From Candidatus Spongiisociaceae bacterium (GTDB lineage: Bacteria; Actinomycetota; Acidimicrobiia; Spongiisociales; Spongiisociaceae): 64,000 nt of DNA. The notes below the pieces were generated by a model that had not been told where the DNA came from, made no database searches, and saw nothing but the letters and a program-made list of their open reading frames with translations. Positions 24,675 through 60,011 of this stretch are shown in pieces. The stretch is taken from assembly GCA_965219685.1 (NCBI GenBank), contig CBDCOH010000002.1, positions 1,600,001 through 1,664,000 of the forward strand, read 5' to 3'. Made by a program: the position numbers and the translations under genes. Each line of letters begins with the position of its first letter. Within the stretch, counting starts at the first letter, position 1.

Positions 24675-25874
24675 TCACTTCACCCTCCCGAACACGTTCA
24701 CGACACTCAGCGAACCGACGCCCGCGTGCGTGTCGGTGATACCGATGCGCGCACCTTGGACGGCCCGGGGTCCGGTCACATCGCCGCGGAGCTGCGACAC
24801 GATCTCGACAGCCTGCGCGATTCCGGTGGCACCCACGGCCGAGCCTCGCCCCATCAGGCCCCCCGACGTGTTCACCGGGACCTGCCCGCCCAGGTCGAAG
24901 CGTCCTTCAGCGGCGGCCGGCCCGCCGTAGCCGCCCGGGCACAGGCCCAGGTCCTCGTATGCCTGCAGTTCGGCGCCGCTGAACGAGTCGTACAACTCGG
25001 CTACGTCGATCTGTACGGCCGGATCGTCGATGCCCGCCTCACGGTAGGCGTCGGCGGCTGCCCTCCGCTTGGCGGCGAAGTGGGGGAACATCTCCTTTGT
25101 ACGGTCGGACAGGCGCGGGTGATCGGTGGATGATCCGCTGCCCAGAATCGCAACGGGGGGCCGTTCCGGGAAAGTGGACGAGTGCTGTTCGGCCCACTCC
25201 CGGGTCGACAGGAGTACCGCCGCCGCCCCGTCGCTGAGCAGGCTGGCGTCGAAGAGGCGGTACGGATCTGCGAGGGGGGTCGAGGCGCGGACATCCTCGA
25301 TCGTGATCGACATGCCCTTGTGGGCGAGGGGATTGTCGAGGGCCAGACGCCTGTTCTTGACGGCTATCTCGGCGAACTGCTCCGCAGTGGTGCCATACCG
25401 GCGCATGTGTTCGGTGATCATCAACGCGTAAGGAGCCGCGAAGGTGCCGAACACCGGCGTCTCCCATTCGAAGTCGGCAGACATGGAAAGTATCTCGGTG
25501 GCGGTGGCCCGGTCCACCGACTTTCCGTTGGTCTCCCCCCCGAACACCAGCACGGACCGAGCCGCCCCGGCCCGGAGGGCCATCACCGCCGTGCGGATGG
25601 CCAGAGCACCGGTCGCGCCGCCACCCTCTACCCGGAGCGTGGGCTTGCCGACCAGCCCGACGCTGTCCTGGAGAACGTGGCCGAGACTCAGCTGACGGTT
25701 GAAGTGGTCGCTCTCGTAGCCGGAAACCGCCATGTCGATCGGGGATGCCGTGGTTCCGGCGTCGATCAGGACCTCGCGGACAGCTTCGGTCACCATGTCC
25801 CGAACCGTGGCATCGTCCCGGAACCCCACGAATGGGATCATGCCAACCCCCACAACAAACACGTCTTCCGTCAT
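24675..25874 (-). CDS. SCP2-type thiolase family protein
   Basis: VGVGM, RVEGGGATG (Gly at the usual Cys position), AVKNR, SDGAAA, ELYDSFS, VNTSGGL..G..VGATG. Confidence 0.88.
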   Translation of the reverse strand: MTEDVFVVGVGMIPFVGFRDDATVRDMVTEAVREVLIDAGTTASPIDMAVSGYESDHFNRQLSLGHVLQDSVGLVGKPTLRVEGGGATGALAIRTAVMALRAGAARSVLVFGGETNGKSVDRATATEILSMSADFEWETPVFGTFAAPYALMITEHMRRYGTTAEQFAEIAVKNRRLALDNPLAHKGMSITIEDVRASTPLADPYRLFDASLLSDGAAAVLLSTREWAEQHSSTFPERPPVAILGSGSSTDHPRLSDRTKEMFPHFAAKRRAAADAYREAGIDDPAVQIDVAELYDSFSGAELQAYEDLGLCPGGYGGPAAAEGRFDLGGQVPVNTSGGLMGRGSAVGATGIAQAVEIVSQLRGDVTGPRAVQGARIGITDTHAGVGSLSVVNVFGRVK

Positions 25875-25930
25875 AGTCCCCCGTCCGCAGGAATCCGGGC
25901 ACACATGATGCGAGTAGAACCTTCGTTGGC

Positions 25931-28204
25931 CTAGCCCCAGTGGTTTGACATGTAGTCGACCATGTCCTCCCCATGCAATTGCTTGGTCGCGTTGCCAACC
26001 CGAACCCAGAACTCGCTATGCTTGGATCCACCGCCGTGTGGTTTCGAGAAGACCGGCTTGCCTGACGCAGCAACCGTTACTACGCACACGATCGCCTCCT
26101 TAACCCGCTCGAATCCGATCTGGACGATTTCGGCTGTCGGCACAGAGAGGCCTGTATCGAGACGTTGCCGAAGGAACAATTCGTACGCATCTATGGTCCC
26201 CTTACTGAGCGTCTTGAGATCGTCGTCAAGACCGAGCACCCTACCATCGTCGTCCACTCCGATGAGGAGTTTGCCGCCTTCTGCGTTCAGGTACCCGCAG
26301 ACCGTCTTGACAACGACGTGTTCCATCTTCTTGTCCGCCCGACCAGCACGTACGTTCCAACGCGCCGTCGACTTGAATTCGACCCTCTGTGACTCTCCGA
26401 TACTGAGCAAGTCCCTCAGAGTGGAAGGAAGCCTACCAACGCTCTCGTTCTCCCAGAGGTATTCAAACCCATCACGGACCACCTTGGCGATGTGATGACG
26501 ACGCCGTTCCAGAAATGTCGGGTAGTCGAGTTGCTCCCACCCAATAGGAAGGGCATGCCAGTAGACCTGCTGCTTCAACCGCTCACGGTCAAACCCTCCG
26601 GCCAGTACCGGCCAGTACTCTAGAGGTCCGTCCTTCCCGATCTTCACGTTGTCGGGCCAGTCTACAAATGCCATGTTGCCGATAGCGTTCTGCTCGCGAA
26701 CCGTGGCGAAGCCGTTAGCTGCAAGGTAGGCCTTAGGAAAGAGATGGTGCCGCTCGATCGAACGAGGCGGAGTAACTTGCGGATCGAGAAGATCCCGAAC
26801 GCGAAGATCGCTGAACAGTAGCTCTGCATCTAGTAAGATCAGCGCTGCCCAATATGCGCAGAGTGGCGGAGATTTGGGCGCCGCGGTATCCAACCGATTC
26901 GGGAGGGTGATATCCCAATAGTCGCCGGTGAAGGTCGAACGAATGATACGATCTAGCTCGTGGCAGAACCCCTTACCATCGCCGTGTTCCAGCATATTGA
27001 TACGACCAAAATCGGCTTCGAACTGGCTCTCAAATGATCCTGTATAGCGACCAGTGACATGTGCCATAAAGAACCATCGTCCTACAACACCCCGGAGTAT
27101 TTGAAGGTCGAGCCCGAAGTCCCGTCTACCGATTAGCCACAGTATGTAAGAGAATAGGATGGCGTTCTTGGATGTAATCATTCGGCTACTACGGAACCCG
27201 GCATGCGTAAGGCACTTCAGAAACTCGTGCCAGTTAGTCAAGTCGATTACCTCGTCTTGGGCACGCCTTAATGCGTCGAACTGGGCGTTGCGTCGCTCTG
27301 AAGAAACGCTTCCGGTCTCGAAGTCCTTGCCCCGCAGTATGTTGTACACGTGCCGGAGCCGTCCTCGCCGGAATGCCAAACCGACTCCGACGCGAAGTAA
27401 CTGATCGGGGGCAGGATCGATGAACGGGTTTCTTGGTGAAGGTCCGTTCATCGTTGCGGTTACGGCATCTCTGCAGAACGCTTCGAGTTGTCGACGACCC
27501 TTCTCCCAGTGCACGGACATCAGAGTTAGGATAAAGTCTGCCTGATTGAGTTGAACTGCCTTGGAGTTGGTACGGACGAAGATTTCGGCTACTTGCTCCT
27601 CGTCGGCATCGGTGTTGAGTTCGATAACCTGGAATCGGAAGTTCTGGAGGTCTCGTACGCGATCGATTCGGTCTTCCAATTCGTCTTTCTCAGCTTCGTC
27701 CAACTCGACACTGCGCCCTTCTATGAGGCGGGTAAAGAACTTGCGAACTGTCGGCCGGTATCCGTCGTTCCACAGAGCATTGATATCGGGAATGAACTCT
27801 GGATCTCTCTCGATCGCCGCATCGGTGACCTCGAATACCTGGTCACCGGGACAAAAAGCGATCCTAATGTGCTTTTTGTCGAAAGACTTCGTCAGGATCG
27901 GCCTACCAGTTAGCACCGCATACAGGGAGGTCAACCGTTGCTGGCCGTCGACGATCAGAAGTTTTGCCACCTTTTCGTTCTCGCCACCTCCCACTTGGCG
28001 AACTCCTGTATCGGTGCCGGTTTCCCAGAACAGTAGGGTTCCGACCGGATAGCCTCGATACAGAGAATCGAAGAGATCGCGTACCTGTGATGCTTTCCAG
28101 ACGAATGGACGCTGAATGTCTGGGAGCGCGATGTTTCCGTGCTTGATGTCCTCGATGAGATGAGTCAAGGAGTAACCGGTGTCTCTGTACAATGTCGGGG
28201 TCAA
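25931..28204 (-). CDS. GmrSD-type (DUF262 + HNH/DUF1524-like) restriction protein fused to a C-terminal Schlafen/AlbA_2 domain
   Basis: LPDIQRPFVW, DGQQRLTSL, IFVRTN; ERHHLFP...NAIGN...N; ESQRVEFKS, GYLNAEGG.LLIGVDDDG. Visibly more AT-rich than its flanks. Confidence 0.85.
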   Translation of the reverse strand: MTPTLYRDTGYSLTHLIEDIKHGNIALPDIQRPFVWKASQVRDLFDSLYRGYPVGTLLFWETGTDTGVRQVGGGENEKVAKLLIVDGQQRLTSLYAVLTGRPILTKSFDKKHIRIAFCPGDQVFEVTDAAIERDPEFIPDINALWNDGYRPTVRKFFTRLIEGRSVELDEAEKDELEDRIDRVRDLQNFRFQVIELNTDADEEQVAEIFVRTNSKAVQLNQADFILTLMSVHWEKGRRQLEAFCRDAVTATMNGPSPRNPFIDPAPDQLLRVGVGLAFRRGRLRHVYNILRGKDFETGSVSSERRNAQFDALRRAQDEVIDLTNWHEFLKCLTHAGFRSSRMITSKNAILFSYILWLIGRRDFGLDLQILRGVVGRWFFMAHVTGRYTGSFESQFEADFGRINMLEHGDGKGFCHELDRIIRSTFTGDYWDITLPNRLDTAAPKSPPLCAYWAALILLDAELLFSDLRVRDLLDPQVTPPRSIERHHLFPKAYLAANGFATVREQNAIGNMAFVDWPDNVKIGKDGPLEYWPVLAGGFDRERLKQQVYWHALPIGWEQLDYPTFLERRRHHIAKVVRDGFEYLWENESVGRLPSTLRDLLSIGESQRVEFKSTARWNVRAGRADKKMEHVVVKTVCGYLNAEGGKLLIGVDDDGRVLGLDDDLKTLSKGTIDAYELFLRQRLDTGLSVPTAEIVQIGFERVKEAIVCVVTVAASGKPVFSKPHGGGSKHSEFWVRVGNATKQLHGEDMVDYMSNHWG

Positions 28205-28300
28205 CGTGGCCTCCTAGTCAAAAGTAGCTGTTGAGCGCTGGTCAGAACCGTGGCAAGAGGCTAGCCAGCCGCGCCGGTAGTTCTCGATCGATCCGATCGC

Positions 28301-30571
28301 TCACGGCTTGCCGAGTTCGAAGTCGACTCGCTCCAGATGGCCGGTGAACGGGAAGTCCCCCTTGTAGGAGGTGCTGACCGGAGACAGGGTGTCCGCTCCT
28401 ACGCTCAGCGATCCCCAGGAGAGCATTCCCCGGGCCATATCGAGCAACTCCACTTCGCATAGGACAGATCCGTCCACGACCAAGCGGCCCACTCCGCGGT
28501 AATCGCCCGTCTTCTCGAATCGGACGGACAGTTCTGTGGCTCCCGGCACCAAGGTCGACTCCGAGACGAGAGTCTGGCGGTCGCCCAGGTAGGAGTACTC
28601 GAACACGACGCGCCCGTCCATCACGTAGAGGACGTAGCCGCCGCTCACGTCGCCTACCGCCACCAGGACCCCTTCGTCGCTCTCCTTGAGGGGAGCGATT
28701 CGGACGTTGATCGAGAAGTCACGGTTGAACACGAGCGGGGTGGCGGCGCCGGGGACCCTGACCGCTCCGCCCAGATAGGAGAAGCTATCTCGCGCCCGGG
28801 GGGAGCCGGGCGTCGTGAACGTGGAGGCCCGCACCGCCAGGTACCGGTCGTCCAGGGGGAACACCGAGTAGCGGGCGGCCTCCTCCGACCACTGGCGGAC
28901 CAGGTCGACGAGCTTGTCGGGGTGCTCGGACGCCACGTCGTTGCACTCGGAGAAGTCCGCGTCGATGTGGTACAGCTCCCACGGGTCATCCTCGAACGGC
29001 TCGTTGCGCCGGTGCCTGGTGAGCGCCTTCCACCCCCCGTCCCACATGGCCCGGTGGCCGATCATCTCGAAGTACTGGCGGCTGCGCGCCGGCGGCGCGC
29101 CGGAGTCGACCAGCACCTCCCGGATGGTGGCGCCGTGGAGCGGCATCTGGTCGGTACCCCGGTAGGAGGAGCGCGGCTCCACCCCGACCAGGTCGAAGAG
29201 GGTCGGGGCGATGTCTATGGCGTGCACGAACTGGGTGCGAACCCCGCCGCTGGCGGAGATCCCCTCCGGCCAGGAGACGATCAGGGGCGTGCGGACGCCT
29301 CCCGCGTAGGTGTTCTGCTTGTACCACCGCAGCGGCGTGTTGGCGGCCTGTGCCCATCCCCAAGGGATGTTGGTCTGCGAGTGCGGACCGCCGATGGTGT
29401 CGAACCGCTCCATGTTGAACTCCACCGTGCAGAACCGGTCCTCCTCGTAGGTAACGATGTCGGCGCCCCCGTCGGGCCCGCCCTCCTGGCTGGCCCCGTT
29501 GTCCGACAGGACGACCACGATCGTGTTGTCGAGCCGGTCGATGGAGTCGAGGAACTCGAACAGGCGCCCCATCTGGGCGTCGGTGTGGTCCAGCATGGCC
29601 GCGTAGGCCTCCTGGAACCGGGCGAACAGCTTCTGCTGGTCGGCGGTCAGGTCGTCCCACTCCTCCACGCCGGGGTTGAGGGGCGCGAGGACCGCGTCCT
29701 CGGGGACGATCCCCAACTCCTTCTGGCGGGCGAATCGGCGCTCGCGGATCACGTCCCAGCCCTCGTCGTAGCGACCCCGGTACTTGTCCAGGTACTCCTG
29801 CGGCGCCTGGTGAGGGCAGTGGGCCGTCCCGAACGCCGCGTACAGGAAGAATGGCTGCTCCGGCTTGACCGAGACCTGGTCGCGGACGTAGGAGATGGCG
29901 TGGTCGACCAAGTCCTCCGTCAGGTGGTAACCGTCCTCGGGCCTGCCGGGGGGTTCGACCCGGTGGTTGTCCTCGACCACGTCCGGGTAGAAATGGTCGG
30001 TGAGGGCGTCGAGGAACCCGTAGTAGCGGCCGAATCCCCGACCCAGCGGCCACTCGTCGTAGGGACCGGCGGCGGTGGTCTCCTCCAGAGGCGCCAGGTG
30101 CCACTTCCCGATCGCCATCGTCGCGTAACCGGCGTCCTGAAGGACCTCGGCGATGGTGCCGGCCGAGCGGGTCACCCGGCCTCGATGTCCGGGGAAGCCG
30201 GAGTCGACGTTCGACAGGTAGGCCATTCCCACGCTGTGGTGGTTGCGCCCGGTGAGCACGCAGGCGCGGGTCGGGGAGCAGAGCGGGGTGACGTTGAAGT
30301 CGTTGAAGCGCAGCCCCCGCTCCGCGAGGGCGTCCATCACCGGCGTCTCCACCTCGGCTCCGTAGCAGCCCAGGCCGGCGAAGCCCACATCGTCGAGCAC
30401 CACCAGCACCACATCGGGCTTGCCGCGGGCGTCGGCGGCCATCGGGGGCCACCATGGCACCGAATCCCTGAAGTCCGGTCCGATCACCCCCTTGAAGCCA
30501 GGCTCCGGATGGCTCGGCGGAGTCTGCTCTCCCGCCCCGGGGGTTCCGCTCAGGTCAGTGCTGGATTCCAT
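28301..30571 (-). CDS. Arylsulfatase (Cys-type, FGly-dependent) with C-terminal LamG-like domain
   Basis: LDDVG, CSPTRACVLTGR, GKWHL, HCPHQ, SDNG, WELY. Confidence 0.93.
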   Translation of the reverse strand: MESSTDLSGTPGAGEQTPPSHPEPGFKGVIGPDFRDSVPWWPPMAADARGKPDVVLVVLDDVGFAGLGCYGAEVETPVMDALAERGLRFNDFNVTPLCSPTRACVLTGRNHHSVGMAYLSNVDSGFPGHRGRVTRSAGTIAEVLQDAGYATMAIGKWHLAPLEETTAAGPYDEWPLGRGFGRYYGFLDALTDHFYPDVVEDNHRVEPPGRPEDGYHLTEDLVDHAISYVRDQVSVKPEQPFFLYAAFGTAHCPHQAPQEYLDKYRGRYDEGWDVIRERRFARQKELGIVPEDAVLAPLNPGVEEWDDLTADQQKLFARFQEAYAAMLDHTDAQMGRLFEFLDSIDRLDNTIVVVLSDNGASQEGGPDGGADIVTYEEDRFCTVEFNMERFDTIGGPHSQTNIPWGWAQAANTPLRWYKQNTYAGGVRTPLIVSWPEGISASGGVRTQFVHAIDIAPTLFDLVGVEPRSSYRGTDQMPLHGATIREVLVDSGAPPARSRQYFEMIGHRAMWDGGWKALTRHRRNEPFEDDPWELYHIDADFSECNDVASEHPDKLVDLVRQWSEEAARYSVFPLDDRYLAVRASTFTTPGSPRARDSFSYLGGAVRVPGAATPLVFNRDFSINVRIAPLKESDEGVLVAVGDVSGGYVLYVMDGRVVFEYSYLGDRQTLVSESTLVPGATELSVRFEKTGDYRGVGRLVVDGSVLCEVELLDMARGMLSWGSLSVGADTLSPVSTSYKGDFPFTGHLERVDFELGKP

Positions 30572-31918: not shown

Positions 31919-33145
31919 CTACCGGTCGGGCCTGTCGCCGCCTCCGGTCGGACGGTGCTCCGCCCAGATCGACGCGTACACATCCGTGCGGCCCTTGTTC
32001 AGGGCGAACACGGGACCACTGGCCAGCCCCCGCTCCGAGGACAGCCGCAGCGCAGCCTCGGCGAAGGGCCTGCCGCCGATAGCGCCTGATTGCGAGCGGG
32101 CCATCCGGACCAGCGCCTCGTACTCCTCGATGCGGCGTCCGGCCGCGGCGCGGAGTTCACGGACCGCCGCGTCGTACCACGGCCAGAACTCCTCGGGAAG
32201 GCCGGCTCGCAGCCCGTTCACCGGATCCGGGGTCCGTTTCGCGATCGCCTCCACCGTCGCGGGTTCCATCCGCAGCCGCCTCGACATGGTGGTGATGTCA
32301 AGCCCGCGGTCGACGGCATCGGCCACGGCGGCCACCTCCCACACGCGCAGCGAGGTCAGACCGGTCACGATCCGGTGGGCGACCACGTACTCGGGAAACT
32401 TGAACTTGAAACGCACGTGCGGCCGCCCGCTTCCCGTGTCGAACCGGACCACGTAGCCCTCTCTCGCCGACTCGGCGCTGGTGGCGACGTGGTCGGCCAA
32501 CTCGGCGAACGAACCGACTTCGTGAGTGGCTGCCACCGGGCCCGGCCAGTCGAGACATCCGAGCGGCAGGTCCGCGCCGGTCCTGATGTCGATAACGGCC
32601 AGCAACACCAGGTCTCGCATGGATCCGTAGTCCACCACCACCCGGTTGTCCGGGTAGATGATCTCGAACAGGGGGGTGACGTCCTCGCCGAACCGGACAT
32701 GGCTGTACCTGTCCTGCCAGATCCCGGTCGCTTCCTCGGCCTGCTCCGAGGACAGAGAGCCGCGGGTGGCGAGCCGTACCCCGCCGGCGGGATGGTGGTA
32801 GGCGATCCCCAGCGAGCCGTCGAGCTTATCGTGCACCACCATGGGCACGCCTTCGGGGACGGGTGGAGCATCCGGCTCGGACGGGCCGAAGAACTTGGGG
32901 AAGGGGCGGGCCACCACCCGGTCGCCGTCATCCACGATCAGCCCGCGACACACCTGCGTCGCCCGGTTCCAGGATCTCGAGTAGGTCGCCCGGGGCGTGT
33001 AGTTGAGAACCCGCAGGGGGCCCTCGCCGCGTACCGATACCAGACCCCCTGCCATGGCGTCGGATAGCAGGTCCCGGTCGACCAGATCGTCGAGATGCAG
33101 CCTCGGGGTGGCCCGCCCGGGACCCTTGCCTGCCGGCTCCTTCAT
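31919..33145 (-). CDS. T4 Rnl1-type ATP-dependent RNA ligase
   Basis: LNYT, CRGLI, ARPFPKFF, KLDGSLG (motif I), ATRGS, FEIIYP, EGYVV, KFKF.EY. Confidence 0.85.
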   Translation of the reverse strand: MKEPAGKGPGRATPRLHLDDLVDRDLLSDAMAGGLVSVRGEGPLRVLNYTPRATYSRSWNRATQVCRGLIVDDGDRVVARPFPKFFGPSEPDAPPVPEGVPMVVHDKLDGSLGIAYHHPAGGVRLATRGSLSSEQAEEATGIWQDRYSHVRFGEDVTPLFEIIYPDNRVVVDYGSMRDLVLLAVIDIRTGADLPLGCLDWPGPVAATHEVGSFAELADHVATSAESAREGYVVRFDTGSGRPHVRFKFKFPEYVVAHRIVTGLTSLRVWEVAAVADAVDRGLDITTMSRRLRMEPATVEAIAKRTPDPVNGLRAGLPEEFWPWYDAAVRELRAAAGRRIEEYEALVRMARSQSGAIGGRPFAEAALRLSSERGLASGPVFALNKGRTDVYASIWAEHRPTGGGDRPDR

Positions 33146-57212: not shown

Positions 57213-60011
57213 CTAGTCGCTCGGAGTCTCGGTCTGGTCGGTCTGCGCCACAGCCGATGGCGGGACCGGGGCGAAGTAGCCGACGACGATGAGGAGCACG
57301 CCCACACCGAGGAACGACACCACACGAGCCACGGTCCCGGTGTTGGCCAGGTCGAACAGGAACAGCTTGACGACCACGACCGCCATCAGCGATGCTCCAC
57401 CGATCCAGACGGCCCGTCGCACGAGGCGCACGCCGGCCACCATGCCCGAGAGCCCGGCGATACTCCAGACGATTGACAGGGACGCATGCAACACGGTGGA
57501 GTCGATCATCGCGTCGAAGTCGAATGGAACGTCCAGCCAGTGGTGAACGGTCCGGGCTACGGCCATAGTCAGCAGGATGATCCCCACGACCGTCAGCCCC
57601 GGGATCCAGGACCGTCCTATGACGTCTTCGAGTGGATTGTTCTCCTGCGCGTCGGCCAGCCTCTTCCACATGAGCGCCACCACGACCACGAGGGCGGTGA
57701 GTATCTCCAGCGGGTTGAACAGCGGCACGTAGGCGAGGGGCGGCGAAGCACCGTCCGACGTGAGGTTGGTCGCAAGCGCCATGATCGCCACCACCAGGAG
57801 CGCGGGGCCTGCGCAGGCCATCAGGTAGGTATGCCAATGCGTTCCCAGAGGCCAGGTCGCCGCCCGGCGTGCGACCAGCGTGCCGACCACGACCGCGAGC
57901 ATCGTCGCCAGGGCCGCAGTGATCGGCCACACATCGGAGGCAACCTGGCCGACCTGCCAGTGGATCTCCCTCCCCGCCACGATCACCAATACCCAGTAAC
58001 CGACGGTGTGCATGACCGACACTGCCCAAGGGAAGGCGCCCTCCCGCCAGCGGAGCACCGAGTAGTACGACGCCATGGCAACGATCCAACCGGCCCATCC
58101 GTGCATCCCGAATGGATGGCTCTGGACGATCAGCGCCAGGGCCAGGAACAGCACCAGGGCGGGCGCGAGAGCCACCCCTACGGTTCGTAGTCGCATCCAG
58201 CCGATCATCGGAGCCGCCAGGGCCAGACCGCCGAGCGAGACCGTGACGAACACGATCGAGACGGTCAAGCGGCCGTCCGGCGGGACGTGGAGCATCGTCT
58301 CCATGAGCCCACCGACGATCCACCACCCGGTGCTCCATACGAGCGCGAGCCAGCACAGGGCTCGGGTGGTGTCATCCCGGTCGTCCCCTCTCAGGTCGAG
58401 GGATCGACCTGAGAGCAGACCCACGACCGCTAACAGCGCCGCTCCGAGGAAGTACCCGTTCAGAACCGGAGTCAGACCGGTTGCGTCAAAGTCCGACGCG
58501 ATGAGGTAGCCGAGGAAAGCGAGCCCGCCCATAGCCTGAAGCCCACTGCCCGCGTAGGTGGCGAGACGACGCTGGTGCCGAACGCCGAACCAGACGAGGA
58601 CTCCACCCTGCAGCACCCACGCCACAGAAATGTACTGTGCCTCGAGTGCGAGCGGCACGGTGATCGCCACAAATGCCACCGAGAGACCCGCGTAGGCATC
58701 TCGAAGCGATCCGGACTCCTTGCCGTACCGGTGAGCCACCCACGCGAACAGCGCCAGGATTACGGCCAGGATCCCGGAACTGAGCGCCGCCCCGTATTCG
58801 AAGTGGTCGGTGAGGACCAGTTGCAGGCCGAGGGCGGCAAACGGAAGACCGAAGACCAAGGGACTGGTCATCCATGCCTTCACGTCCGGCGGTTGGCGGG
58901 CGGCGAATAGGACAGGGATGGTCATATACAGCAGGACGAGCAGCGCGATCAGGGGCTGGGTGGTGGCCCAGTCCTGCTCCGAGTACCGGGTGAACACCCA
59001 GAACGCCGACACAGCAAGCGTGAAACCCAGGCCGAGCAGGTTGAGTTCGGGCCAGATCTTGAATCGGGCGACCGCGACTATGGCCGCGCTGAGAATCAGG
59101 TAGAAGCCGAACACGACTACGTGGTCCCTGGCATCGGAGTAGGCGAGAACGGGAGCGAGGAAACCGCCGATGATGCCCAGCACCGCGAGCGAACGTGCGT
59201 CTTCGAGCACCGCCAGCACTCCGGCCCCCACGGTGACAATCACGACCGCCGCGGCCGCCGCCGATGCCGGGAGGAGATCGTAAACCGCATGGGCCACGTA
59301 GGTCGTCAGGTAGAGAACCGCGATTCCGCCCCCCTGCAGGCTCAGTCCGTAGATCGGGTTGCGGCCCCGGACGCGCCATCCCACCACCAACAGGAGCACA
59401 CCGAATGCGGCGACCAGGACATGTCGCACCTCGATGCTGAGAGTGATCCAACCCTGATCGAGAGCCACACCGAGCAGGAAGCCCAACCCGATGAGCGACA
59501 GCAGCACCCCTATCTTGACCGGTACGTTGCCGGTGGTGACCCAGGTTCTGATCATACGGATGACTCGTCCATCGAGCGACGGTCCCTGGTGGGCGAGGGG
59601 TGCTACCCGGACGACCTCGGCGTCGGAGCGAGCCGGCGGTCCTGCCGTCGGCGATTCGAGTCCTAAAGCCGGCTGGGGCTCGATCGGTGATGCTGCGGTT
59701 GGAGCCGGCGTCCCGGAGCGTGGGGACGGGACCAGGATGTCCGGCGCCGGCGCGGCAGGAGCAGGCGCTGGTGGCTTCTCTCTCACCGTTTCGGGCGGCC
59801 GTTCGGGTTCGGCCGTGGCGGGGAATCGCCTCTCCTCGATGGGTTCACGTCCGGATTGCGCCAGCCGGCGCCGGAGTCCGATCACGTCTGCGACCAAGAA
59901 CCCGACCAGCCCACCGAAGATGAACCCGCCGTCCCCCTCGAGCATCCGGGCGCCAAGCGCGACACCCAGCACGATGAAAAGCACCGTCATTACTACATGT
60001 GAGCGGTTCAT
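57213..60011 (-). CDS. DUF2339 family polytopic membrane protein
   Basis: GN...KIG...L.GL.FL, LQGGG...LYL, LG..GGF.AP.L, KLFL.DL......RVVSF.GVG. Confidence 0.88.
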   Translation of the reverse strand: MNRSHVVMTVLFIVLGVALGARMLEGDGGFIFGGLVGFLVADVIGLRRRLAQSGREPIEERRFPATAEPERPPETVREKPPAPAPAAPAPDILVPSPRSGTPAPTAASPIEPQPALGLESPTAGPPARSDAEVVRVAPLAHQGPSLDGRVIRMIRTWVTTGNVPVKIGVLLSLIGLGFLLGVALDQGWITLSIEVRHVLVAAFGVLLLVVGWRVRGRNPIYGLSLQGGGIAVLYLTTYVAHAVYDLLPASAAAAAVVIVTVGAGVLAVLEDARSLAVLGIIGGFLAPVLAYSDARDHVVVFGFYLILSAAIVAVARFKIWPELNLLGLGFTLAVSAFWVFTRYSEQDWATTQPLIALLVLLYMTIPVLFAARQPPDVKAWMTSPLVFGLPFAALGLQLVLTDHFEYGAALSSGILAVILALFAWVAHRYGKESGSLRDAYAGLSVAFVAITVPLALEAQYISVAWVLQGGVLVWFGVRHQRRLATYAGSGLQAMGGLAFLGYLIASDFDATGLTPVLNGYFLGAALLAVVGLLSGRSLDLRGDDRDDTTRALCWLALVWSTGWWIVGGLMETMLHVPPDGRLTVSIVFVTVSLGGLALAAPMIGWMRLRTVGVALAPALVLFLALALIVQSHPFGMHGWAGWIVAMASYYSVLRWREGAFPWAVSVMHTVGYWVLVIVAGREIHWQVGQVASDVWPITAALATMLAVVVGTLVARRAATWPLGTHWHTYLMACAGPALLVVAIMALATNLTSDGASPPLAYVPLFNPLEILTALVVVVALMWKRLADAQENNPLEDVIGRSWIPGLTVVGIILLTMAVARTVHHWLDVPFDFDAMIDSTVLHASLSIVWSIAGLSGMVAGVRLVRRAVWIGGASLMAVVVVKLFLFDLANTGTVARVVSFLGVGVLLIVVGYFAPVPPSAVAQTDQTETPSD

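Follow-up and report, generated by a model that had tools for sequence, protein, structure and literature searches.

A probable pSlfn7-class defence protein joining a BrxU/GmrSD-like core to a C-terminal Schlafen domain in a Candidatus Spongiisociaceae bacterium

BrxU from Escherichia fergusonii pEFER (PDB 7p9k/7p9m) is a single-gene type IV restriction enzyme of the GmrSD family that joins a DUF262 domain to a DUF1524-type HNH domain, is defined by the motifs RLFDS, DGQQR and DHIYP together with Asn residues, and cleaves modified DNA through a nucleoside triphosphate (NTP)-driven dimer-to-monomer cycle (PMC8565348). Extra C-terminal domains on GmrSD proteins were described by Machnicka et al. 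in 2015 (PMC4619093), and in their account of His-Me finger group 3, Jablonska et al. (2017, PMC5714182) listed AlbA_2, DUF4268 and DUF4357 as the domains usually added at the C terminus of DUF1524/GmrSD proteins. These two surveys do not consider an RNase activity for AlbA_2 and report no test of the proteins concerned. More recently, among 5,930 prokaryotic Schlafen (Slfn) proteins, Perez Taboada et al. (Nat Microbiol 2026, PMC13056530) placed 109 (1.8%) DUF262-Slfn proteins in a class named pSlfn7. Here we describe a gene for a 757-amino-acid (aa) protein that carries both a DUF262 and a Schlafen domain. It lies on the minus strand, at positions 25931..28204, of a 64,000-nucleotide stretch of DNA from a Candidatus Spongiisociaceae bacterium (GenBank assembly GCA_965219685.1, contig CBDCOH010000002.1, positions 1,600,001 to 1,664,000). 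The whole of this stretch is referred to below as the window.

Our results make it very probable that the 757-aa protein is a BrxU-like plus Slfn defence protein of class pSlfn7. Residues 1-585 are predicted to form a complete BrxU/GmrSD-type enzyme, composed of a DUF262 NTPase, a helical linker and a DUF1524-type HNH DNase, and residues 596-757 are predicted to form a single-lobe Schlafen RNase domain. The features of the gene are as follows.

25931..28204, minus strand: whole gene, BrxU/GmrSD-like core plus C-terminal Schlafen domain (open reading frame [ORF], Pfam, structure model)
27527..28165, minus strand: DUF262/GmrSD_N, ParB/Srx-type NTPase, residues 14-226 (Pfam, 4e-34)
27935-27949, minus strand: DGQQR, residues 86-90 (sequence motif)
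26888..27526, minus strand: alpha-helical linker, residues 227-439 (secondary structure of the model; co-linear with the BrxU/SspE linker)
26450..26887, minus strand: DUF1524-type His-Me finger (HNH) nuclease domain, residues 440-585 (fold and motif)
26735-26749, minus strand: HHLFP, residues 486-490 (sequence motif)
25934..26419, minus strand: Schlafen/AlbA_2 domain, residues 596-757 (Pfam SLFN_AlbA_2 at 604-743, 3.1e-15)
26372-26395, minus strand: Ex4ExK, residues 604-611, within ESQRVEFKS 604-612 (catalytic motif, to which D652 is added)
28210..28215, minus strand: Shine-Dalgarno sequence AGGAGG, 5 nt upstream of the TTG start (28204-28202), read from the sequence

The class assignment rests on domain content and on a listed homologue. 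DUF262 and Slfn are present in one polypeptide, and the Slfn/AlbA_2 nuclease domain carries Ex4(E/D)xK, the catalytic signature of prokaryotic Slfn (Perez Taboada et al., preprint 10.1101/2025.07.24.666596). A table of PMC13056530 lists the Euzebya pacifica protein NZ_CP031165.1_279 (2,313 nt, 770 aa) as pSlfn7. By species and length we take this protein to be our Euzebya homologue P0022, which shares 73% identity with the 757-aa protein, and the family therefore falls inside the published class. The class has a defence-neighbourhood score of 0.76, and one of its members, EcoSlfn7 of E. coli UC4224, lowered the plating of T7 538-fold and that of T2, T4 and T5 ~10-fold (PMC13056530); the -log10 efficiencies of plating in the supplement are 2.75 for T7, 1.25 for T5, 1.16 for T4 and 1.0 for T2. 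An earlier note on this DNA, made from the sequence alone, knew of no characterised protein with this architecture. That statement is outdated, as the AlbA_2 addition was listed in 2017 and DUF262-Slfn proteins constitute pSlfn7; the gene is one more member of a large, already catalogued defence class. The terms GmrSD, HNH, DUF1524 and BrxU have 0 occurrences in the main text of the Nat Microbiol paper (PMC13056530), and a literature search on GmrSD/DUF262 with Schlafen/AlbA_2 yielded no biochemical work on a DUF262-HNH-Slfn protein. The domain reading of the earlier note, in which a GmrSD-like DUF262 domain, an HNH domain and a Schlafen/AlbA_2 domain are encoded by one acquired gene with a role in defence, is upheld in each of these parts by Pfam, folds, conservation, context and the published class.

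The N-terminal part carries QRPFVW at residues 31-36 and the nucleotide-binding motifs expected of the GmrSD/BrxU type, namely an RLFDS-type motif (RDLFDS, 42-47) and DGQQR (86-90). Pfam matched GmrSD_N here and SLFN_AlbA_2 at the other end, and PADLOC assigned the protein to HEC-05 as its best model (2.2e-33), which its authors equate with BrxU (10.1101/2024.01.29.577857). A full-length AlphaFold2 model was built from a 17-sequence alignment, with a mean predicted local distance difference test (pLDDT) score of 83.8. In a Foldseek search with this model BrxU came first (E 2e-13), followed by DIP2311, DndI, SspE, SLFN13/14/11 and SAMD9. VIA-align gave BrxU a Z score of 15.6 with 488 aligned residues and a root mean square deviation (rmsd) of 18.2 A. 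Since model residues 7-581 match BrxU chain residues 1-579, residues 1-585 run co-linear with BrxU over its full length, and the high whole-chain rmsd, judging from the model, reflects a different domain orientation. SspE_CTD aligned with a Z score of 11.1 over model residues 216-586. The 757-aa protein differs from BrxU in sequence (~15% identity), in having HHLFP in place of DHIYP, in its additional 160-aa C-terminal Schlafen domain, and in lying outside a BREX system.

Because Pfam missed the HNH domain, residues 430-590 were folded separately, from a 43-sequence alignment reaching down to 25% identity (pLDDT 93.3). Foldseek with this domain alone returned nothing at E<=0.001. An exhaustive VIA search of 48,161 representative chains, run with no Foldseek pre-filter, placed the BrxU C-domain (437-583) at the top, with a Z score of 9.3, an rmsd of 4.0 and 134 aligned residues, followed by DndI (Z 5.9), SspE_CTD (Z 5.8) and the HNH domains of Cas9 (Z 4.0-4.7). 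The region thus combines a DUF1524 His-Me finger fold with a motif of the form (D/H)H(I/L)(Y/F)P and conserved Asn residues: ERHHLFP at 484-490, N506, N510 and N519. H487, P490, N510 and N519 are invariant in the 43-sequence alignment. Among 86 family representatives with a length of 560 aa or more, 81 have H486, 78 have H487, 82 have N510 and 76 have N519, and 78-80 retain the DGQQR residues of the DUF262 domain.

In the C-terminal domain, the Ex4ExK motif is accompanied by a second AlbA_2 motif, GGKLLIGVDDDG, at residues 643-654. Here, too, all motifs that the earlier note had named in the three domains were found where it had placed them. E604, E609, K611 and D652 are invariant in 17/17 homologues, down to 27% identity. 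The family profile matched SLFN14 at 6.7e-9, and the alanine of the E211A-mutant chain falls on the column of E609. The best structural matches of the last 160 residues were DIP2311 (Z 13.8), SAMD9 with DNA (Z 13.4) and the SAMD9 tRNase domain (Z 12.7), with SLFN5/11/13/14 at ~10. Among prokaryotic proteins, tRNA cleavage in vitro by RorSlfn5 was observed with added Mn2+ and needs the Ex4(E/D)xK residues, the inactivated control carrying E15A and D20A at this signature (PMC13056530). RorSlfn5 belongs to a class other than pSlfn7 and is, in the parts of that paper used here, the only protein for which tRNA cleavage was shown (PMC13056530).

The family is very large. All 8,000 scored candidates passed an E value of 0.001, and when representatives at 50% identity were searched exhaustively, 14,850 matched at E<=0.001, 649 of them at E<=1e-30. 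The best 120 of the 8,000 relatives are 67-100% identical over the full length and have the same two Pfam domains. The closest Slfn modules (best 120 of 764 matches) are found in the same family or in shorter Slfn-only proteins, at 63-100% identity. Many relatives of ~590 aa align to residues 4-585 only, at 40-50% identity, and consist of the core alone. When 35 relatives with the BrxU-like core were scanned with Pfam for modules at their ends, the C terminus was found to carry DUF4268 (P0131, P0137), RAMA (P0140, P0160, P0162, P0166), weak matches to HEPN (P0144, 4.7e-4; P0157, 3.3e-4) or, in others, unassigned tails, and the N terminus to carry Mrr_N in five proteins and MrcB_N in P0206. In P0125, Slfn is followed by RAMA and DUF4268. 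With such varied end modules on the same core, Slfn is therefore one of several modules occupying a swappable terminal slot, and AlbA_2 and DUF4268 are the same alternatives that appear in the 2015/2017 surveys of GmrSD proteins with additional domains. Four further relatives (P0076, P0085, P0093 and P0094, ~1,004 aa and ~69-70% identical) have an N-terminal extension of ~245 aa that is tagged PF28530 by the database and was not reported by our Pfam scan.

The three catalytic sites are retained to different extents. E604, E609, K611 and D652 are all present in 26/26 Slfn-bearing representatives with no more than 50% identity, three of which have degenerate HNH residues. Where both other regions could be aligned in Slfn-bearing representatives (n = 22), the HNH residues are kept in 19 and DGQQR in 20; in representatives without Slfn (n = 56), the corresponding numbers are 51 and 54. 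Of the three sites, that of the RNase thus shows the fewest losses. DWQQR, which accounts for one of the two representatives scored as lacking DGQQR, is probably a translation artefact. Judged from this conservation, the predicted catalytic sets of all three domains are under purifying selection. In P0205, P0207 and P0261, W replaces a G that is invariant in the family (DWQQR; NWWTLLIW for GGTLLIG), which suggests that these are genes with TGA=Gly (code 25) that were translated with TGA=W.

A mechanism can be proposed from these parts. By binding and hydrolysing NTP, DUF262 would drive, as in BrxU, a conformational or oligomeric (dimer-monomer) cycle on foreign, probably base-modified DNA, and this cycle would license cleavage of the DNA by the HNH domain. 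The same NTP/DNA cycle would gate the Schlafen domain, whose metal-dependent cleavage of tRNA, extrapolated from RorSlfn5 and eukaryotic SLFNs, would shut down translation. One polypeptide would in this way combine direct restriction of DNA with an abortive-infection-type attack on RNA. By analogy with the systems described above, this scheme as a whole seems to us reasonably likely: both nucleases would be active, and the RNase would be under the control of the NTP/DNA cycle. Within it, the RNase is probably a principal effector and not a mere backup, because the Slfn residues are kept more strictly than those of HNH and because EcoSlfn7, which appears to lack an HNH, still defends. The earlier note had proposed modification-dependent restriction coupled to an RNase backup, which would fire once restriction is engaged or inhibited, in the manner of PrrC. 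The word "backup" in the earlier note may for this reason understate the Slfn domain, on present conservation the better preserved of the two nucleases.

Several points weigh against this mechanism. RAMA, DUF4268, Mrr_N and MrcB_N, the end modules of the sister proteins, are DNA-binding or reader domains and are not known to be effectors, so that the slot holding Slfn could itself be a binding slot. The top structural matches of the Slfn domain include the SAMD9 domain solved with DNA, and Jablonska et al. (PMC5714182) treated AlbA_2 as a DNA/RNA-binding domain. The Pfam model GmrSD_C/DUF1524 (PF07510), a match to which would be expected of a GmrSD/BrxU protein, found nothing in the 757-aa protein at E<=0.1, which marks the HNH region, as modelled, as a divergent DUF1524-like branch recognised by fold and motif only. 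The specificity of the 757-aa protein for modified DNA is assumed from BrxU/GmrSD. T7, the best target of EcoSlfn7, has unmodified DNA. Finally, in the parts of PMC13056530 used here, the pSlfn7 members tested are EcoSlfn7 and EluSlfn7 only, and EluSlfn7 gave no protection.

EcoSlfn7 itself (WP_028985442.1) resembles the 757-aa protein in having an N-terminal DUF262, a C-terminal Slfn with Ex4ExK, a single gene and a variable slot, in its case a P2-like prophage hotspot between a replication gene and a portal gene. However, it has 589 aa rather than 757 (Pfam DUF262 at 19-168, Slfn at 423-573), and two of its differences also count against a direct transfer of function: the proteins are 27% identical over only 92 residues of DUF262, with DGLQR in place of DGQQR, and EcoSlfn7 shows no HHLFP/HNH-like motif by eye, BLASTP or Pfam comparison. 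Its Slfn domain occupies the position that is taken by HNH and then Slfn in the 757-aa protein. The class pSlfn7 thus mixes two designs, DUF262-helical-Slfn (EcoSlfn7) and DUF262-helical-HNH-Slfn (the 757-aa protein), and the results obtained with EcoSlfn7 are not simply transferable to the latter. The HNH-bearing design provides a clean one-protein system for asking how a restriction cycle and an RNase are coupled.

Some of the same observations would fit a plain type IV restriction enzyme in which AlbA_2 cuts no RNA and serves to target or tether the nuclease through binding of DNA or RNA. Such an enzyme would account for a 1-585 core that occurs alone (~590 aa) or with RAMA, DUF4268, Mrr_N or MrcB_N, for the description of AlbA_2 as a DNA/RNA-binding addition to GmrSD (PMC5714182), and for the match to SAMD9 AlbA_2 with DNA. 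We nevertheless consider it very unlikely: the catalytic E, E, K and D persist in 26/26 representatives, three of them with a degenerate HNH, the weak C-terminal HEPN (RNase) matches in the sisters P0144 and P0157 imply that the slot can hold effectors, and EcoSlfn7 defends with no HNH seen. The last observation instead favours the opposite arrangement, in which the GmrSD-like part, HNH included, only senses phage DNA or protein and the Schlafen RNase is the sole effector of a pure abortive infection. The domains fused to prokaryotic Slfn were read generically as sensors by Perez Taboada et al. (10.1101/2025.07.24.666596), and the HNH residues are lost in 3/22 Slfn-bearing representatives and the Slfn residues never. 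Against this stands the HNH site itself, with H487, N510 and N519 invariant in 43 sequences (to 25% identity) and the set intact in 19/22, which would be unexpected for a disused nuclease; a sensor with a single effector is, in our judgement, unlikely.

That the gene has no part in defence, and instead encodes a nuclease for housekeeping or repair or is a functionless acquired gene in decay, is hardly credible. Its neighbours in the window are all metabolic, with 0/9 matching PADLOC, and the scan of 25700-28500 gave no promoter- or terminator-like sites. However, the frame and all catalytic sets are intact, the distribution is patchy and the context variable, defence genes lie near other loci of the family, the alternative occupant of its slot is a RosmerTA-like gene, and the class has a published defence phenotype along with its defence-neighbourhood score of 0.76 (PMC13056530). 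A defence protein with two working nucleases, the RNase gated by the restriction cycle, remains the reading that we prefer.

The same Slfn subfamily is found elsewhere in the genome of the window (4.42 Mb, 2 contigs), where AlbA_2 is encoded by six ORFs. Among these are two type I HsdR subunits that end in SLFN_AlbA_2, at L098:3696-7508 (minus strand, 1,270 aa) and L099:912-4445 (plus strand, 1,177 aa), with the layout HSDR_N, SWI2_SNF2/ResIII and T1R, then SLFN_AlbA_2. Their Slfn domains are 39% and 34% identical to that of the 757-aa protein, and all three fused domains have the signature ESxxVE[FY]K...RWN...GGxLLIGV in common. The remaining three AlbA_2 proteins combine Slfn with HATPase_c_4 (and in part a winged helix-turn-helix domain, wHTH) and are encoded at L100:2151-4316 (minus), L092:1444-3114 (plus) and L093:142-2022 (minus). 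A literature search on Schlafen with HsdR found no published study of an HsdR-Slfn fusion. An RNase on a type I restriction subunit calls to mind PrrC/EcoprrI, in which an anticodon nuclease is held latent under a type I restriction enzyme. The recurrence of the Slfn module on HsdR suggests that restriction enzymes tend in general to acquire a fused nuclease that shuts off translation.

This raises the possibility that the Schlafen module is a covalent guard of restriction enzymes, an in-cis counterpart of PrrC/EcoprrI across restriction classes. A phage anti-restriction factor or DNA mimic would stall the NTP-driven restriction cycle, the RNase would be released, and the infection would be aborted. 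The basis for this proposal is that one genome has the same Slfn subfamily at the end of a BrxU-like type IV enzyme and of two HsdR subunits, and the HsdR-Slfn fusions would be the in-cis analogues of PrrC/EcoprrI. The likeness to PrrC is one of operation only, an RNase coupled to a DNA restriction enzyme; the 757-aa protein has no sequence relation to PrrC and no PADLOC PrrC match, and its coupling is covalent. We regard the guard proposal as doubtful and put it forward tentatively, by analogy.

The gene itself is well delimited. The minus-strand ORF is intact over 757 aa plus stop; an in-frame TAG lies directly ahead of the AGGAGG/TTG start region, and close homologues have the same start residue. 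The GC content is 0.53-0.58 across 25931-28204 and 0.64-0.72 in both flanks. On one side lie genes for a thiolase-like protein, a ChsH2-type OB protein, a xylose-isomerase-like TIM barrel, dihydroxyacetone kinase (DAK) and a 495-aa protein of unknown function; on the other side are a sulfatase, a 355-aa protein of unknown function and an RNA_lig_T4_1 protein. The flanking genes have the same orientation as the Slfn-fusion gene. The view of an AT-richer singleton amid metabolic genes, put forward in the earlier note, agrees with the ORF, the GC profile and the domains of the neighbours. None of nine neighbouring ORFs (0/9) matched PADLOC at 1e-5. Direct or inverted repeats flanking the gene, sought as marks of insertion, gave only short, chance-level matches, and the promoter and terminator scan of 25700-28500 (0 + 0 sites) is uninformative for a high-GC actinobacterium.

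Genes 60-76% identical to this one were compared at 80 loci of species-representative genomes, from Acidimicrobiia, Streptomyces, Mycobacterium, Micromonospora and others and also from Acidobacteria, Thiotrichales and Thermomicrobiales. At 54/80 loci the GC content of the gene is more than 3 points below that of its flanks. No conserved partner gene was found across the 80 loci. The commonest neighbour family, Fic, is present at 7/80, followed by SNF2 helicase at 6 and HsdM at 4, with AAA_21, UvrD and type ISP at a few each and metabolic genes as well. Our results indicate that the gene was horizontally acquired and stands alone.

The metabolic cluster around the gene is conserved in the genus, with two variable slots. 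The slot between the thiolase and sulfatase genes (window 25905-28300) holds this gene in the genome of the window and is empty, at 458 bp, in genome G004. In G005, G006 and G007 it is occupied by a gene encoding a helix-turn-helix (HTH) domain with Peptidase_M78, matched by PADLOC to RmrA (1.3e-22; RosmerTA-like). The slot with the RmrA-like gene lies as follows in two of these genomes.

L094:4066-5782: slot holding the RmrA-like gene in G005
L096:4414-5616: slot holding the RmrA-like gene in G007

In G005, this slot also contains a PDC-S70-like ORF of 222 aa. The second slot, between the DAK gene and the gene for the 495-aa protein, is closed in the genome of the window; in G005 it is occupied by a family copy with 60% identity. 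The copy in this slot in G006 (L095:3236-6436), 58-65% identical, is split by an IS4/5-family transposase gene (DUF4096 + DDE_Tnp_1). Variation of this kind is what a mobile defence gene in a hotspot would show.

The RNA_lig_T4_1 protein (408 aa) is encoded at 31919-33145 on the minus strand, 3.7 kb from the Slfn-fusion gene. It was considered as a linked tRNA repair enzyme and rejected, as its presence does not track the Slfn-fusion gene. The ligase gene is syntenic in G007, lies elsewhere in G002 and was not found in G004-G006. G007 has the RosmerTA-like gene in the slot, with a DUF262-only match elsewhere and no full-length copy of the family found, and G005 has a family copy with no RNA_lig_T4_1 gene found. 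The single tRNA-like call in the whole window, made by ARAGORN at 59740-59823 on the plus strand, lies ~31 kb from the Slfn-fusion gene and has a four-base anticodon (tctc), with no identity assigned to it.

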